Source: Escherichia phage KIT06
Length of the DNA stretch: 64,000 nucleotides
Sequence record: OQ349392.1
Strand: one strand, 5' to 3'
The translations under genes were made by a program, and so were the position numbers. The notes under the pieces are model-generated. The model was not told the DNA's origin, made no database searches, and saw nothing but the letters and a program-made list of their open reading frames with translations. The first letter of the stretch is position 1. The number at the start of each line of letters is the position of its first letter. Below are positions 17,406 through 27,737 of this stretch, one piece after another.

Positions 17406-17936
17406 ATGAAACGATTAGTACTAGAAGTTAGTTCACTTTTTGGTGAATTGGCTATAGAAAAAGTAAATAATATGTATCGTTTGACGCAAGAAGACGATAT
17501 GCTGTATTTTACACCTAGTGAAATTATTCATTTAACCCAAATTGAAAAACCTTATACTGATAAAATTGTAAGCATTAATGATGAGCATAAAATTCATTTC
17601 TATTCTTTATGCCCAGGATTTAACATTGAAAGCGAGTCAATATGCTTATCAATTAATAATTGGGATAATTTTATAACTAAAATTAAATATTTTTATTATT
17701 CTAACGAAAGAAAACATGGTTTAAAATGGTTTAAAAATTGCAATGCTATTATTACTAACGCTTGTAATCAAAATTATGAAACTGTTTTAAATGTATCAAA
17801 GTGTTACGAAGAAGGAGATGTCTTAACTATTCGTCAATCGGTAAATGATGTTAATGTTGTTGTATTAAACAAAGAAGAAGCTGTTTTATTAAAGACTTAT
17901 CTTGATTCTGTCATTCCAACTATGATTTCAAAGTGA
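17406..17936 (+). CDS. hypothetical protein (paralogue A of a tandem pair)
   Basis: ATG 17406 after AAAAAGGA; C-terminal motif KTYLDSVIPTM shared with next gene. Confidence 0.5.
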   Translation: MKRLVLEVSSLFGELAIEKVNNMYRLTQEDDMLYFTPSEIIHLTQIEKPYTDKIVSINDEHKIHFYSLCPGFNIESESICLSINNWDNFITKIKYFYYSNERKHGLKWFKNCNAIITNACNQNYETVLNVSKCYEEGDVLTIRQSVNDVNVVVLNKEEAVLLKTYLDSVIPTMISK

Positions 17937-20493: not shown

Positions 20494-20529
20494 TACCCTA
20501 TCAAAACAAATGTGAAATTGGAGAATAAA

Positions 20530-21498
20530 ATGAAAACTGTAACTATCAATAAGGGTATCTACTTCGGTAAAGAAATCTCTGGAACTTTTGAGCTTTTAGG
20601 CGAATGGTTCCCAGATAATGCTCCGGTAGATGCACAAGGAGATGGTAAAGTTTTTGTTGAAATTGACGGTAAACGTCGCGGTGTTTGGGTTTACAAATCA
20701 GATATTTCATATGATGGTGTAAAAGTTGAAGAAGTTAAAGAATCATATGAAGATATGAAAACCCGCATTAATAAAAGATTTAATGTTATGGGAATGATGA
20801 CGAATGGTATTATTAACGGAAATATTCGTTCATTGATTATCTCTGGCGCAGCAGGTATTGGTAAAACGTATTCTTTAGATAAAGCTTTAAATAAAGCAAA
20901 TGATATTGGATACATTGAATATAAAAGCATTAATGGTAAAATCTCTGGTATTGGTCTTTATGAACAGCTTTGGAATAATCGTGAAGAGAATTCTGTCCTT
21001 TTGATTGATGATGTGGATGTTTTCTCTGATATGGACATTCTTAATCTTCTAAAAGCTGCTCTGGACACTGGAGAGACCCGTAAAGTCTGCTGGAGCACTG
21101 CATCTTCTTACTTAGAAGAAAAAGGCATTGACCGTGAGTTTGAATTTAAAGGAACGATTGTTTTTATCACAAACGTTGACATTGACCGCGAATTAGACCG
21201 TGGTACTAAACTTGCCCCACACTTACAAGCATTAGTGTCCCGCTCAGTTTATTTGGATTTGGGTGTTCACACTAATGAAGAAATTATGGTCAGGGTTGAA
21301 GATGTTATTCTTTCAACTGACATGATGCAAAAGCGCGGTCTTTCTGATGAAGAAACTTATAAAGCATTATCATGGATGAAAGTTAATGTTAATCGTTTAC
21401 GCAATGTTTCACTGCGTACTGCTCTTTATCTTGCTGACTTTATTATGACCGACAAAAACGGTTGGGAAGAAATTGCTGAGGTTACTCTTCTGAAATAA
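20530..21498 (+). CDS. AAA+ ATPase-like protein
   Basis: Walker A GAAGIGKT, Walker B LLIDDVD; ATG 20530 after GGAGAATAAA. Confidence 0.55.
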   Translation: MKTVTINKGIYFGKEISGTFELLGEWFPDNAPVDAQGDGKVFVEIDGKRRGVWVYKSDISYDGVKVEEVKESYEDMKTRINKRFNVMGMMTNGIINGNIRSLIISGAAGIGKTYSLDKALNKANDIGYIEYKSINGKISGIGLYEQLWNNREENSVLLIDDVDVFSDMDILNLLKAALDTGETRKVCWSTASSYLEEKGIDREFEFKGTIVFITNVDIDRELDRGTKLAPHLQALVSRSVYLDLGVHTNEEIMVRVEDVILSTDMMQKRGLSDEETYKALSWMKVNVNRLRNVSLRTALYLADFIMTDKNGWEEIAEVTLLK

Positions 21499-21962: not shown

Positions 21963-22490
21963 ATGAACGCTAAAGATATTTTCAACTTGGTAAATTACAA
22001 TGATGGTAAATTTAAATCTGAAGCACAGAGTAAGTTCTTTAATGACATCTCAATCGGAGGTGAAATCACTGTTGATGGAGGACAAATTTACAAATCCCGT
22101 TGGAATTGGATCGTTATTATTGATGAGATTGGTATTGTAGAAATTTACAAGAATACGAATAAAAATCGTACATTACACTGGTCTCGTGATACTAACGAAC
22201 AGTACAAAAAGGATAAAGCATCTAAATTATCTCGTGTAACTCAAGAAGATATTGAGTTCATCAAGAAAGATATTTTAATGTATGATAACTTAATTGCTGA
22301 AGAGCAAGCTGTTATTGATAAATTTGATGAGATTAAAGCTTCTCGTGAAATTCCTGATTTTATGAAAGAATCAGTAAATGAACGATACACTCTCATTTCA
22401 GAGCGTATTGAAACTTACAAAAAGCAAAGAGCTGAACGCCAAAATACTCTTCGGAAGTTTGAAGAACGGTTAAAGACGGTACTCGCATAA
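21963..22490 (+). CDS. hypothetical protein (coiled-coil C-terminus)
   Basis: 175 aa after GGAGGAACAGAAAATG. Confidence 0.5.
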   Translation: MNAKDIFNLVNYNDGKFKSEAQSKFFNDISIGGEITVDGGQIYKSRWNWIVIIDEIGIVEIYKNTNKNRTLHWSRDTNEQYKKDKASKLSRVTQEDIEFIKKDILMYDNLIAEEQAVIDKFDEIKASREIPDFMKESVNERYTLISERIETYKKQRAERQNTLRKFEERLKTVLA

Positions 22491-22492
22491 CC

Positions 22493-22516
22493 GCTTTATA
22501 CCAAGGATGGTATAAT
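22493..22516 (+). promoter_or_regulatory. possible MotA-dependent middle promoter (imperfect MotA box)
   Basis: CGCTTTA, 12-bp spacer, TATAAT. Confidence 0.35.
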
Positions 22517-22960: not shown

Positions 22961-23851
22961 ATGTCAGTAGTAATTAATAATGTCAATGCAGTAATTAAAT
23001 CTTTAGTTAATAAAAAAATGATGAATGAATGGACTGTATTTCGTCGTGGAGAGCCAGATAAATTTTTTCATAGATTTAACCCAACTTTGGATTTGAATGT
23101 TATCGACAAAGATGTTCATGCAGAAATTTTAGATAAGTTTAAAGTTGATATTGGATTTGGATTAGAAAAACATTTACAGCGAACAACCGGGTCTGGAATG
23201 AGTTTATCTAATCGCATTATGAAAGCCCTTAATAAAATTGGAGCGTTGTCTCGTATTAATGCGAGTGAAATTCTTCGTAATTATAATAAAGGATATGACC
23301 TTTATGGTCGACTAATGCCGAAATTATCATTCGATCAAATGATTGCGGATTTGTGGGAAAATCAACGACGATTATTAGCATTAGGCGCTCGATTAGCTAA
23401 AGGTCTAGATAAACAAATGATTTTTAAGACCAATAATACAGAAGACCTTAAATGCTTTAAATTTAGTATTCGTGGAGATGATTATTACATCAGAGCTCGC
23501 TCTACCGATTATATTAATATGGGACATCATCTCTGTTTAGCTTTTGAAGTTTTAAAAGAAGCTGGAACACTAGAATATTCATCTGGTGCAAAATGCCCTA
23601 TTGGTTCAAGTTGTATTTTAATTTATCGCCCGGATGAATCTAGTTCAACTAAATTGCCTACAAAACCTGTACCGGTTCGTAGTAACGAAAAACATTCTGA
23701 ACAAATTGATTATTTTAATAAGCAGATTGAAGAGCTGAATATTTCTATTCAACAATATGATGATGAAATTTTCAGACTATCTGGATTGAGTAGTAAAGCT
23801 AAATCTGAGCGTGAAAAGTTAATTAAAATTGTTGATTTACTTAAATCTTAA
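22961..23851 (+). CDS. hypothetical protein, C-terminal coiled coil (array member 1)
   Basis: ATG 22961 after GAGGAAAAT; C-terminal ~40 aa heptad-like. Confidence 0.5.
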   Translation: MSVVINNVNAVIKSLVNKKMMNEWTVFRRGEPDKFFHRFNPTLDLNVIDKDVHAEILDKFKVDIGFGLEKHLQRTTGSGMSLSNRIMKALNKIGALSRINASEILRNYNKGYDLYGRLMPKLSFDQMIADLWENQRRLLALGARLAKGLDKQMIFKTNNTEDLKCFKFSIRGDDYYIRARSTDYINMGHHLCLAFEVLKEAGTLEYSSGAKCPIGSSCILIYRPDESSSTKLPTKPVPVRSNEKHSEQIDYFNKQIEELNISIQQYDDEIFRLSGLSSKAKSEREKLIKIVDLLKS

Positions 23852-23859
23852 GGAACACC

Positions 23860-24888
23860 ATGAAAACTCGTTCTCAAATTGAAGATATGGTTCGTACTGC
23901 CAGTGATACTCGTAATGTTATGACATTTTTGTGTGAAAATAATTTAGACCCTGATAAAGTTAATCGTGTTATTCATCACTTTAAGTATACGAATAGCAGT
24001 GAATGGGTGCGTAATTTTAGTAAAGCGGGTTATATTACACAAATGACTGCTCGTGAGCAACTCACCGATTTCTGTAAAACTATTGATTATAAAAATCCTC
24101 TATTTGTTCAAGGCGTTGGTCAAAGTAAGGTCGATTTATCATCTGGATTTTTCAATCCAAATCATTATCGTATTGAATGGAGATTTATTGCTCTGTTCCG
24201 TAGACAATTAAAGCAAATTTTATCAACTGCGAGTCGATTAAAAGGTTCTGATATTAATTTAAAGAATCTGAAATTTGATGGTTATACTCTTCAGATGGAA
24301 GTAAGACCATTAAAAGAAAATAATAGAACTGCACGAATTAGCTTTAAACCTAATACAAAAAATTCTCTTTCAATTTGCGAATGCCTTAAATCGCAGTTGA
24401 CAGAAGCATTTAAGTATATGGATGTTGTTGCCGCTGTTCAGTCTAAGATTTTACCTCGTTTTGAGCGATTTAAATTAGACACAACAACATATGAACTTGA
24501 TATGATCGTTTCATTTAAATACGATTTTTTGAGAAAGGATGAAGTCACGCAAGAGAAAAAGCAAGAAGTGCAAGATAACTTAAATTTAAATTTATCCAAT
24601 TACTCATCAAACGACCCTAAATTTTGGATGTATAGCTCAAGCAATATAGATGCATGTAAACTTAATAAAGTGAGTTTTCTTCCTACTGAAAATTCAAATT
24701 TTAAACCTGTAGAAAAATGGCACGCTGACGCGATTGAGAAGTCTCTTGAGGCAGTAGATGATGAACTCGTTAAAGCGACCAATGAAGTGCTAGAAGCTGA
24801 AAAGGTGTTAGAACAAGCTCAGTCAAGGGTTCAAAATCTGACAAAGCAACGTTCTAAACTGAACAATGCACTAAATGCACTGAACTAG
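23860..24888 (+). CDS. hypothetical protein, C-terminal coiled coil (array member 2)
   Basis: 342 aa; C-terminus ...EAEKVLEQAQSRVQNLTKQRSKLNNALNALN. Confidence 0.5.
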   Translation: MKTRSQIEDMVRTASDTRNVMTFLCENNLDPDKVNRVIHHFKYTNSSEWVRNFSKAGYITQMTAREQLTDFCKTIDYKNPLFVQGVGQSKVDLSSGFFNPNHYRIEWRFIALFRRQLKQILSTASRLKGSDINLKNLKFDGYTLQMEVRPLKENNRTARISFKPNTKNSLSICECLKSQLTEAFKYMDVVAAVQSKILPRFERFKLDTTTYELDMIVSFKYDFLRKDEVTQEKKQEVQDNLNLNLSNYSSNDPKFWMYSSSNIDACKLNKVSFLPTENSNFKPVEKWHADAIEKSLEAVDDELVKATNEVLEAEKVLEQAQSRVQNLTKQRSKLNNALNALN

Positions 24889-24917
24889 TTTACTTTGCCA
24901 CAAGGATGTGGTATAAT
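24889..24917 (+). promoter_or_regulatory. T4-type early promoter
   Basis: TTTACT-N17-TATAAT overlapping upstream stop. Confidence 0.65.
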
Positions 24918-24945
24918 GTTCTTACTTTCTACTGAGGAGATTAAT

Positions 24946-25947
24946 ATGACTCGTAACGAATATATCAAATCATTCAATAGTGTTATTGATGATAAAGCTA
25001 TACCGATGTTTGGCCAAAATAGCGTTCTTTCTATTATCAATCAATGGCTCAATAGTGTTGATGCAGGTATTGTTTCTTCTACTAAATTTATTCATGAAAT
25101 TCGTAAAATTTCTAGTCGTGTAGATAAAGATGTTATCAAGAAAACCTTTAAAGAGTCTCGTCTTCTTTCATATTTGGTTAATCGGGATATTCTTGGTAAT
25201 TTTGGGAAAGAAATTAAACGAACCAAAGATGTAGTAGGATATAATTGGTTCGGTGATGTTAATTCTTATCATCTTAATAATAAAGAAGACCCTGAGAATA
25301 TTTTTACTCGTCGTTGGATTAGTAATTTCAGACTTTTCAAAGGACAGATTCTAAAATCAGCTTCTAAATTATGTTATGGCGATTATCGTCAAATTCATCC
25401 TTTGGCTTCTGATATGATTATCATAAAAGAATATGAACTTGATAAAAATAAAGTATCTATTTTTGTGAATTATGGATTTTTTACACCAGAAACTAACCAA
25501 AAGAATATTAATAAATTTTTCTCAATTGCTAGCACTATAACTCGTCAATTAGAAACCGCATTACTTTGTATGGAAACGGTAGAAAATATTCATACTTATC
25601 CTTTTAAGAATATGTGTGGTTGGGAAGGATATAAAATTATAATTAGCCTTCGTGAAGTGAAATGCGCTTATTCACCGACTGATAAAGAAATTTACCAACA
25701 AAAATGTGATGAAATTGTGAATACTCCTAAAGAAGAAACTACCCTTGAAGAACTAATGGATAATCTTGACGATTCGCCTGAACCGATAGAAATTCGTCCA
25801 GAAGTTATTGCACTAGAAAAAGCTTATAAAGAAGTTCTAGAAATTTCTAATAAAGCGCAGAAAGAATATGAGAAGGCTAAAAGGATTTGGGAAGAATCTG
25901 TTAATCGTCTGGATCGTCTTGAACAAGCTTTACAGCTAATTAAGTAA
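24946..25947 (+). CDS. hypothetical protein, C-terminal coiled coil (array member 3)
   Basis: ATG 24946 after GAGGAGATTAAT; C-terminus ...KAQKEYEKAKRIWEESVNRLDRLEQALQLIK. Confidence 0.5.
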   Translation: MTRNEYIKSFNSVIDDKAIPMFGQNSVLSIINQWLNSVDAGIVSSTKFIHEIRKISSRVDKDVIKKTFKESRLLSYLVNRDILGNFGKEIKRTKDVVGYNWFGDVNSYHLNNKEDPENIFTRRWISNFRLFKGQILKSASKLCYGDYRQIHPLASDMIIIKEYELDKNKVSIFVNYGFFTPETNQKNINKFFSIASTITRQLETALLCMETVENIHTYPFKNMCGWEGYKIIISLREVKCAYSPTDKEIYQQKCDEIVNTPKEETTLEELMDNLDDSPEPIEIRPEVIALEKAYKEVLEISNKAQKEYEKAKRIWEESVNRLDRLEQALQLIK

Positions 25948-25999
25948 TTTAAAGCCAAGGATGGCTCGGAGTATAAATCATTAACCAAATGAGAAGAAC

Positions 26000-26929
26000 A
26001 TGAAAACTCGTAAACATTATATTGATTATTTTGATAGTCTTATTACTAAACACCGTAATTATCAGATCGGACACAGAGCAGTAATCAATAATATTCTTCG
26101 TGATTTCCTTCAATATGTTGGCCAGGAAAATCATATCTGTAAAGATACACAGAACGCTTATTCTCATTCGTTGGGCAATTTGCTTCAATGGTTTAAACGT
26201 TCTCGTATGTTATCTTCTACTGTAGCTCGCGATAACATTAAAAACTTTATGAAGCCGAGTTTTATTAAATCTGCGACATCTATAACTGATTTGGTTGAAT
26301 TTACTATTGTTAACGATGTTAAAAAGACCCATTTGGCTGATTGGCTATCTACCATTCCTGAAACTAAATTTGCTGATAAATTTGCCTGTCAATTTAATGA
26401 CCAAGTGAATATGCTTTTTAAGCATGCTCGTAAACTATTTACCGCAGGCGATGACCGTACAAATACAGTTCATGTTAAGGACTGGGTTATTGCTGATGAA
26501 GTAACACACAAGCCAGGTGGTTCATCAGTATTAATTAATATCCAGGTTCCTTATTATTACTCACGTAATCTCGGCACCATGACAGCTAGAGAAATTAATA
26601 AGCACAACAAAACTATTCGTTCGTTGTCTTATAAACTCCGCATGATGCTAAAAATTATGGACGTAGTGGAAATGTATGACGAAACCGAAGATAACGGTTC
26701 AATGTTATACAGTTCACGCATTCTAATTAAACTGAAGAACCCTAATACATATAAGACAGTTGTAAAAGAGCCTAAAGTAGAAAAGATTGATAACTTGAGC
26801 GAAGAACGTGAATATCTCAATGCTCGCTTAATTGAAGTTGAATCCCAGATTGCCGAACACACCAAATTGTTAAAAGCTCTTAATGCAAAAGCAAATGGTT
26901 TACGCAATGCTATTGAGGTATTGAAATGA
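26000..26929 (+). CDS. hypothetical protein, C-terminal coiled coil (array member 4)
   Basis: 309 aa; C-terminus ...[42 protein letters not shown]. Confidence 0.5.
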   Translation: MKTRKHYIDYFDSLITKHRNYQIGHRAVINNILRDFLQYVGQENHICKDTQNAYSHSLGNLLQWFKRSRMLSSTVARDNIKNFMKPSFIKSATSITDLVEFTIVNDVKKTHLADWLSTIPETKFADKFACQFNDQVNMLFKHARKLFTAGDDRTNTVHVKDWVIADEVTHKPGGSSVLINIQVPYYYSRNLGTMTAREINKHNKTIRSLSYKLRMMLKIMDVVEMYDETEDNGSMLYSSRILIKLKNPNTYKTVVKEPKVEKIDNLSEEREYLNARLIEVESQIAEHTKLLKALNAKANGLRNAIEVLK

Positions 26930-27473: not shown

Positions 27474-27737
27474 ATGTTTAAAGTATATGGTTATGATAGC
27501 AGCATCCATAAATGTGTGTATTGCGATAATGCAAAACGTCTTTTGACTGTGAAGAAACAGCCGTTTGAATTTATCAACATTATGCCGGAAAAAGGTGTTT
27601 TTGATGATGAGAAAATCGCTGAGCTTCTAACTAAACTGGGTCGTGATACTCAAATTGGTTTGACAATGCCACAAGTATTTGCTCCTGATGGAAGTCATAT
27701 TGGTGGATTTGACCAATTGCGGGAATACTTTAAATGA
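27474..27737 (+). CDS. nrdC: thioredoxin/glutaredoxin NrdC
   Basis: 87 aa MFKVYGYDSSIHKCVYCDNAKRLL... with CVYC redox motif. Confidence 0.92.
   Translation: MFKVYGYDSSIHKCVYCDNAKRLLTVKKQPFEFINIMPEKGVFDDEKIAELLTKLGRDTQIGLTMPQVFAPDGSHIGGFDQLREYFK

Follow-up and report, generated by a model that had tools for sequence, protein, structure and literature searches.

T4 is a reference phage, and about half of its genes have no assigned function. This report concerns four consecutive genes, nrdC.6, nrdC.5, nrdC.4 and nrdC.3, located at positions 22,961 to 26,929 of a 64,000-nucleotide (nt) stretch of Escherichia phage KIT06 (sequence record OQ349392.1; the whole stretch is referred to as the window), and describes their products as members of one phage-specific protein superfamily with a globular body, a flexible tether and a conserved C-terminal helix.

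The closest described system is T4 nrdC.5 itself. An evolved T4 clone carrying compensatory deletions was unable to infect the strain ECOR17 and infection was restored by disruption of dsr1; dsr1 placed on a plasmid protected MG1655 against the evolved clone, T4 nrdC.5 supplied in trans restored infectivity, and losing nrdC.5 had no cost on laboratory hosts (Srikant et al., 2022, eLife, PMC9391042). That study discusses neither the mechanism of NrdC.5 nor its paralogs (PMC9391042). Dsr1 is a defence protein that depletes nicotinamide adenine dinucleotide (NAD). Its sensor is reported to be a bilobed domain of tetratricopeptide (TPR) repeats shared with Avs7, and its trigger to be the phage major capsid protein (2026 preprint, PMC12803255). 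No later literature on the NrdC.5 family was found, and nrdC is mentioned neither in a recent catalogue of phage anti-defence proteins nor in another recent paper that mentions Dsr1.

Two further systems invite comparison. DSAD1, encoded by SPbeta-type phages, binds and inhibits DSR2 (PMC10973363, PMC10981675) and may be a functional analogue of NrdC.5, as a phage product that disarms an NAD-depleting defence protein with a SIR2 domain and a virion structural protein as its trigger; its target is DSR2 and not Dsr1, and the likeness is drawn from function, with no relation of sequence or structure claimed. The T4 genes dmd, tifA and adfA resemble the nrdC.x genes in being non-essential early accessory genes that are clustered, differ from one relative to the next and can be lost at no cost on laboratory hosts. 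They are, however, small and mutually unrelated, whereas the block described here consists of one 300–340-residue protein duplicated three times in place.

The existence of the four genes and the anti-Dsr1 function of NrdC.5 are already known. New in this work are the link between three Pfam families, the body-tether-helix architecture, the duplication history of the locus and the status of NrdC.3, NrdC.4 and NrdC.6 as candidates for a counter-defence function.

Four Related Proteins Encoded Upstream of nrdC

The 4.1 kb that include the four genes are up to 97% identical to the DNA of Tequatrovirus (T4-like) phages and find a match in 656 phage records; judged by its sequence, the window is that of a Tequatrovirus. 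The genes, identified by their position and the T4 annotation, are consecutive open reading frames (ORFs) on the plus strand, within a long run of early genes and just upstream of the glutaredoxin gene nrdC (27474–27737):

22961–23851, plus strand: nrdC.6, 296 amino acids (aa), PF26899 and phrog_2257, the most divergent paralog; its helical N-terminal region is followed by an alpha/beta domain, a disordered linker (aa 228–242) and a tail.
23860–24888, plus strand: nrdC.5, 342 aa, DUF7235 (PF23882) and phrog_2351, 94% identical to T4 NrdC.5.
24946–25947, plus strand: nrdC.4, 333 aa, PF26897 (Phage_T4_Y04OP) and phrog_1435.
26000–26929, plus strand: nrdC.3, 309 aa, PF26897 and phrog_1435, a paralog of nrdC.4 seen only in Tequatrovirus loci.

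nrdC.4 starts at 24946, behind a GAGGAG ribosome-binding site, as it does in the T4 annotation.

In Pfam, PF26897, PF23882 (DUF7235) and PF26899 stand as three separate families of unknown function. NrdC.5 belongs to DUF7235, whose profile it matches from end to end, at 396.8 bits where the gathering cut-off is 30 (E = 9.7e-119). A scan of NrdC.4 and NrdC.3 with a local copy of Pfam gave no match to the PF26897 model; their membership follows from clusters 88–94% identical to NrdC.4, and from NrdC.3-type clusters, that carry a precomputed PF26897 annotation. NrdC.6 likewise had no match in the local Pfam copy, and its assignment to PF26899 rests on the precomputed annotation of its relatives (105 of 105) together with phrog_2257. 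In PHROGs, NrdC.4 and NrdC.3 fall into the same function-unknown group, phrog_1435 (3e-168 and 1e-116), and NrdC.6 (phrog_2257, 3e-152) and NrdC.5 (phrog_2351) into two others, also of unknown function.

The KIT06 NrdC.5 is 94.2% identical to T4 NrdC.5 over its full length, is syntenic with it and shares its length class and its family. It is the ortholog of the anti-Dsr1 protein, a designation that applies to NrdC.5 only; NrdC.3, NrdC.4 and NrdC.6 of the window are paralogs of the T4 protein. The activity itself was shown for the T4 protein only, and against the Dsr1 of ECOR17.

Many deposited T4-like genomes label the genes nrdC.1 to nrdC.11, these four included, as "thioredoxin." None of the four proteins matched a thioredoxin family in scans of Pfam, PHROG and NCBIfam, and the label appears to be a carry-over from the nrdC prefix of the gene names.

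The sequence-only reading of this DNA described the four proteins as having different N-terminal bodies, a description that does not survive profile comparison. By pairwise BLASTP, NrdC.4 and NrdC.3 align over 231 body residues (25% identity, E = 8e-8) and none of the other five pairs is significant; as this is the only link that BLASTP provides, profiles were needed. Family alignments were built from 259 database relatives and compared by hhalign, and all of the resulting alignments are co-linear. NrdC.4 and NrdC.3 are joined at 98% and NrdC.5 matches the combined NrdC.3/4 profile at 89% (E = 2.4e-6). When 1.84 billion cluster representatives were searched exhaustively by HMMER with a profile of NrdC.5, NrdC.4 and NrdC.3, only 19 clusters were returned at E ≤ 0.001, which shows that the family is very small. 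The same search yielded remote full-length members (P0260, P0266, P0268, P0271, P0272, and P0273) that bridge the paralogs: P0268 matches NrdC.5, NrdC.4 and NrdC.3 by BLASTP, and P0272 matches the hidden Markov models (HMMs) of NrdC.6, NrdC.5 and NrdC.3/4, the match to NrdC.6 being nearly full-length. Matched to a profile made only of the remote members, NrdC.5 scores 99.2% (E = 3e-19), NrdC.3/4 99.6% (E = 2e-24) and NrdC.6 90.5% (E = 1.4e-6), the last alignment extending to the C-terminus; against the full superfamily profile NrdC.6 scores 92% (E = 5.8e-7). The core motif of NrdC.3/4/5 reads (S/A)R-L-L-S...A-R-D..L..F-G-K followed by ...I-L-K-x-A-S-K-L..G-D-x-R, and that of NrdC.6 reads L-S-R-x-N-A..I-L-K-N-Y-N-K-G followed by N-Q-R-R-L-L-A-L-G-A-R-L-A-x-G-x-D-K-Q.

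NrdC.3, NrdC.4 and NrdC.5 are very probably diverged paralogs of one another, and NrdC.6 is likely to be a diverged paralog of these three. With homology over body and tail, PF26899, DUF7235 and PF26897 are joined as one superfamily by profile, bridging-sequence and model evidence; it is phage-specific and found only in T4-like (Straboviridae) phages. The alternative raised with the original description, that the proteins might be unrelated conserved T4 nrdC.x products, proves half right, since the proteins do belong to the conserved T4 nrdC.x products yet are mutually related.

Residues 30–86 of NrdC.3 (26087–26257) resemble the N-terminal SAM-like domain of XerD-type tyrosine recombinases weakly, at scores below threshold. 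The match to PF02899 (E = 0.065; 14 bits against a cut-off of 22.3) does not make NrdC.3 a member of that family, and two NCBIfam models are matched at E = 0.0013 and 0.014 (18 and 14.7 bits against cut-offs of 279 and 330). Across the proteins the NCBIfam scan gave only sub-threshold matches, either driven by the coiled coil or directed to the recombinase N-terminus. This similarity could reflect a helical-bundle domain of that kind, or it could be noise.

A Conserved Helix at the C-Terminus

A Lys/Glu/Gln-rich coiled-coil tail of about 40 residues had been recognized from the sequence alone at the end of all four proteins. The tail is present in each of them, at a length of about 50 residues rather than 40:

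23696–23845, plus strand: nrdC.6 tail, aa 246–295, two helices, with an invariant DDEIFRL and a terminal LLK.
24715–24882, plus strand: nrdC.5 tail, aa 286–341, a single long helix after a disordered linker (224–285).
25795–25944, plus strand: nrdC.4 tail, about aa 284–333, delimited from the heptad pattern and the alignment to the NrdC.5 helix.
26783–26926, plus strand: nrdC.3 tail, about aa 262–309.

Heptad patterns were evaluated with a home-made score, not with COILS or MARCOIL, that expects hydrophobic residues at positions a and d and polar or charged residues elsewhere, penalizes Pro and Gly, and takes the best of seven registers in 28-residue windows. The best window of the whole protein lies within the last 60 residues in 4/4 proteins. 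The tails have a Glu/Lys/Gln fraction of 0.27–0.40, compared with 0.16–0.20 in the bodies, in agreement with the composition first described, and are nearly free of Pro and Gly. The 64 kb contain 76 plus-strand ORFs that begin with ATG and have 100 aa or more; only five of them reach a C-terminal score of at least 25, namely NrdC.3–6 and NrdC.8, and the probability that the top five fall by chance within six consecutive ORFs is 1.9e-5. Shuffled tails match or exceed the observed score in 3 to 55 of 2000 cases, depending on the protein. The tails are candidate coiled coils by a long helix, which is predicted in NrdC.5 and NrdC.6, and by heptad spacing beyond composition, which the shuffles reveal.

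The A+T-rich genome (31–38% G+C in the window), with its many Lys, Glu, Ile and Asn codons, might by itself produce tails of this kind as a by-product of composition and of no significance, and the scores of NrdC.4 and NrdC.3, only modestly above their shuffles, are as this would predict. The explanation has next to no probability, since such tails occur in only five of the 76 ORFs, all of them within six consecutive genes, since they are conserved above the body in 4/4 families, and since AlphaFold2 places long helices at the tails of NrdC.5 and NrdC.6. It was rejected on the within-window control.

Identity in the last 45 residues exceeds that of the rest of the protein within each family (0.69 vs. 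0.47 in NrdC.6, 0.81 vs. 0.71 in NrdC.4, 0.88 vs. 0.83 in NrdC.3, and 0.94 vs. 0.91 in NrdC.5), and the tail holds the best heptad window in 97–100% of the members of each of the four. Even members with only about 20% body identity retain the tail and its terminal motif (for instance RDKLKAAISVLK, RGKLLRAIQALK, LDRLEQALELVK, and RDALVNAIKEFK). What the tails of different paralogs have in common is restricted to the heptad pattern and a terminal L-x-x-A-[IL]-x-x-L-K motif. Comparison of tail-only profiles between paralogs, with reversed tails as control, gave no significant similarity (best P = 0.002), and real tails outscore reversed ones in 5/6 paralog pairs; through its tail positions the superfamily profile finds weak matches to GCN4 zippers (E = 0.3–0.5). 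The tail can be read from these comparisons as an ancestral part of the architecture that is under selection and has a paralog-specific sequence, a combination to which a structural self-association element is better suited than a common docking site.

This bears directly on the proposal made from the sequence alone, of a family of effectors with a common C-terminal interaction module, taken here as four effectors with unrelated bodies that dock through it onto the same partner or onto each other. The recurrence of L-x-x-A-[IL]-x-x-L-K in paralogs and remote members would suit such a module, as would the heptad-patterned helix that ends NrdC.3–6 and the unrelated NrdC.8 alike, and a metagenomic protein, P0269, joins an unrelated 110-aa body to the tail of NrdC.5. 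The bodies of the four proteins are, however, homologous, the tail-only profiles are not significantly alike, and P0269 comes from a single 803-nt contig that may be an assembly chimera. A shared module is therefore very unlikely, and the tails look paralog-specific rather than like a shared docking element.

Two observations on proteins outside the superfamily concern similar tails. The gene nrdC.8 (21963–22490, 175 aa), two genes upstream of nrdC.6, encodes a heptad-patterned C-terminal helix (...LRKFEERLKTVLA) that is conserved in nearly all of the Tequatrovirus and related T4-like loci examined; NrdC.8 was considered as a short member of the superfamily and rejected, with an unrelated body and hhalign P > 0.1 against every family profile. 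P0269 (173 aa) consists of the 110-aa N-terminal part mentioned above, of unknown nature, and a tail 87% identical to that of NrdC.5. In its contig (L003, from the European Nucleotide Archive) the 3' 324 nt have 100% identity with Tequatrovirus phages, and neither DNA nor protein searches found a phage match for the 5' 479 nt. P0269 is either an assembly chimera or a real recombinant and, as a single contig with a 5' part of this kind, was not trusted as evidence of tail shuffling.

Predicted Structures

The helical nature of the NrdC.5 and NrdC.6 tails is supported by AlphaFold2 monomer models, which show a helix at 286–341 of NrdC.5 after a disordered stretch (224–285) and helices at 246–272 and 278–295 of NrdC.6 after a shorter one (228–242). 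The succession of elements is shared by both models: about five helices at the N-terminus, then a pair of helices, a beta-hairpin, one more helix, a second beta-hairpin, the linker and the tail. Foldseek searches of BFVD with either model recover uncharacterised phage proteins of about 220–375 aa, from phages of Erwinia, Klebsiella, Serratia, Yersinia, Aeromonas, Acinetobacter, Pectobacterium, Enterobacter and Citrobacter, most of which we take to be T4-like. Three targets are common to the two models (A0A2Z4QAR2, A0A1V0DXL6, and A0A1Z1LY96; E = 1e-6 to 2e-3).

The members of the superfamily appear to share one build: helices at the N-terminus, then an alpha/beta domain, a disordered linker whose length varies, and a conserved amphipathic helix of about 50 residues ending in L-x-x-A-[IL]-x-x-L-K. 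DSAD1, a small single-domain protein, is not known to have a tethered coiled-coil tail of this sort. The body is without a solved structural relative, and its structure would probably define a new fold.

Copy Number, Promoters and Natural Knock-Outs

Related loci were retrieved with the NrdC.6 family alignment and scanned with the family HMMs. Tequatrovirus loci have four copies, nrdC.6, nrdC.5, nrdC.4 and nrdC.3. Nine T4-like genomes of about 155–172 kb (L013–L021), probably Dhakavirus or Gaprivervirus from the phage names on the matching proteins, have a nrdC.6-like gene, a divergent nrdC.5-like gene of about 300 aa and a nrdC.4-like gene, and lack nrdC.3. Another T4-like lineage (L007) has a single member in the syntenic place upstream of nrdC. 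On this distribution, the family expanded by local tandem duplication, in a series of one, three and four copies.

The intergenic sequences preserve a trace of the last step. The sequence-only reading had noted related upstream sequences with TATAAT, which are indeed found before nrdC.4 and nrdC.3 as CAAGGATG followed by TATAAT or TATAAA:

24889–24917, plus strand: T4-type early promoter of nrdC.4, with TTTACT, a 17-nt spacer that carries CAAGGATG, TATAAT, and TG before the -10 element.
25948–25977, plus strand: degenerate copy of the promoter before nrdC.3, with TTTAAA, an 18-nt spacer that carries CCAAGGATGG, and TATAAA.

Few sequences in the region match the sigma-70 type as well as the nrdC.4 promoter does, and the annotation of phage Lutter has a promoter at this position. 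The combination of CAAGGATG with TATAAT or TATAAA stands before nrdC.4 (24901), nrdC.3 (25956) and nrdC.7 (22502), the only three copies in the 64 kb, and in all three the octamer CAAGGATG lies in a promoter spacer of the nrdC block; at least three copies of the octamer arise in 22% of shuffles, so that its placement alone is notable. In the nine related genomes, where the exact motif is present, the nrdC.4 promoter reads GTTTAC(T/A)TCCAAGGATGGAGGGAGTATAAT, an intermediate form, with the Tequatrovirus nrdC.4 promoter (GTTTACTTTGCCACAAGGATGTGGTATAAT) on one side and the nrdC.3 upstream sequence (ATTTAAAGCCAAGGATGGCTCGGAGTATAAA) on the other. This intermediate indicates that nrdC.3 arose by a duplication of nrdC.4 that included the promoter, the copy having since drifted from consensus, and such a duplication accounts for the resemblance of the upstream sequences. 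The site upstream of nrdC.7 (22492–22516) has GCTTTA, a 12-nt spacer and TATAAT, an arrangement that looks like a MotA-dependent middle promoter, and a similar GCTTTG...CAAGGATGATATAAT site occurs in L018 at about 17530–17585.

The copies continue to vary. The nrdC.3 allele of KIT06 encodes a protein only 60% identical overall to T4 NrdC.3, with an identity of about 90% in the first 70 residues, 37–60% in the central domain and 77–100% in the last 40 residues, a mosaic that suggests cassette-like exchange between conserved ends. In the NrdC.6 family the N-terminal 60 residues are the most variable part. A frameshift in one locus (L012, 10950–11982) splits nrdC.4 into ORFs of 193 and 158 aa, and in P0056, from contigs of up to 167 kb, residues 146–274 of NrdC.5 are fused to residues 129–309 of NrdC.3 with the deletion of nrdC.4. 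Together with the costless loss of nrdC.5 on laboratory hosts, this frameshift and this fusion mark the genes as dispensable; the nrdC.x genes are accessory and often damaged in natural isolates.

A separate observation concerns T4 itself. The nrdC.6 gene of the T4 reference (L002, AF158101) has a one-base frameshift, and the annotated 275-aa protein ("31.7 kDa") is without the conserved tail; T4 "wild" (L022, KJ477684) encodes an intact 296-aa NrdC.6 in a gene that is unannotated. The frameshift is either a sequencing error or a strain-specific mutation.

The history of the locus also bears on whether these proteins might have a housekeeping or host-takeover role, such as nucleic-acid binding, with the rescue by NrdC.5 on Dsr1 hosts being indirect. 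The weak matches of NrdC.3 residues 30–86 to a recombinase DNA-binding domain, and the absence of a mechanism for NrdC.5 from the literature found, leave room for a role of this type. Those matches, however, fall well short of the curated cut-offs, the genes can be dispensed with and are often disrupted in natural isolates, their diversity is mosaic and the only known phenotype is specific to defence, and we hold this explanation to be highly doubtful.

As for the neighbourhood, nrdC.10 (20512–21498, 328 aa), upstream of the block, encodes a Walker-A-like motif (GAAGIGKT) and its product is probably a P-loop nucleoside triphosphatase; in L007, the gene ahead of the nrdC.10 counterpart has an RlaP nucleotidyltransferase domain.

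A Proposed Model for Counter-Defence

The reading we favour, with moderate confidence, is that the four genes are tandem paralogs of one T4-like-phage family that would act early in counter-defence, the body carrying specificity and the tail serving self-association. NrdC.5, made early, would engage Dsr1 before its trigger, the late capsid protein, appears, and NrdC.3, NrdC.4 and NrdC.6, which are candidate counter-defence proteins by their relationship to it, would do likewise, tuned to other defence variants. Target specificity would reside in the globular body, especially in its hypervariable central and N-terminal parts, and the tail would be a paralog-specific coiled-coil element of self-association that presents several bodies on flexible tethers. 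The model is supported by the mosaic nrdC.3, the variable N-terminus of NrdC.6, the nrdC.4 frameshift and the nrdC.5::nrdC.3 fusion, which are the marks of dispensable genes in an arms race. The family of effectors first suggested from the sequence is retained in part: the shared architecture and the counter-defence role of NrdC.5 (PMC9391042) speak for it, but the architecture comes from descent of the whole protein and not from a tail grafted on different bodies.

The tail could instead be the business end, inserting into the target (for example a Dsr1-type TPR sensor) and blocking recognition of the trigger, with the body stabilising or steering it. TPR domains commonly bind helices or C-terminal peptides, and the tail is the most conserved part of each paralog, has charged surface residues that are invariant in NrdC.6 and carries its conserved motif at the extreme C-terminus. 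The sensor of Dsr1, moreover, is built of TPR repeats (PMC12803255). Target specificity is nonetheless expected in variable parts, which are in the body, and the hydrophobic heptad stripe is as expected of a helix that associates with itself; the tail as inhibitor is conceivable but unlikely. More specific still, and quite unlikely in our estimate, is the possibility that the tail, on its flexible tether and with its terminal motif, is a plug for TPR-type immune sensors and the paralogs are a diversified set of early blockers, each with its own clade of Dsr1/Avs7-type capsid sensors as target.

Several results weigh against the model of early counter-defence with a self-associating tail. The only function shown by experiment in the superfamily is that of T4 NrdC.5, for which a direct action on Dsr1 is a supposition of the model. 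The place of NrdC.6 depends on profile probabilities of about 90%, on Foldseek matches of low TM-score and on topology, not on superposition of models. The TM-scores of the shared targets are low (0.17–0.49), which is attributable to the flexible linker, and the models are of moderate confidence (mean predicted local distance difference test scores of 68 and 77), built on alignments of only 27–28 sequences. With regard to the tails, NrdC.4 and NrdC.3 show a modest heptad signal (shuffle p = 0.017–0.028), the two predicted helices of the NrdC.6 tail could fold back on each other, and the invariant charged residues of that tail (DDEIFRL) suit a binding surface as well as a structural role.

Significance

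nrdC.5 is the only gene of the block with a known phenotype, and its paralogy with three hypothetical genes encoding proteins of 300–340 aa makes these specific and cheaply testable candidates for counter-defence. The architecture offers a handle on the action of NrdC.5, the variable body being a candidate specificity element and the conserved tethered helix a candidate element of self-association or plugging. If the tails did prove to plug TPR sensors, the locus would be a phage repertoire of inhibitors against pattern-recognition receptors built by tandem duplication. How a phage expands and prunes its anti-defence repertoire is illustrated by the series of one, three and four copies, by the mosaicism of the nrdC.3 alleles and by the frequency of natural knock-outs.

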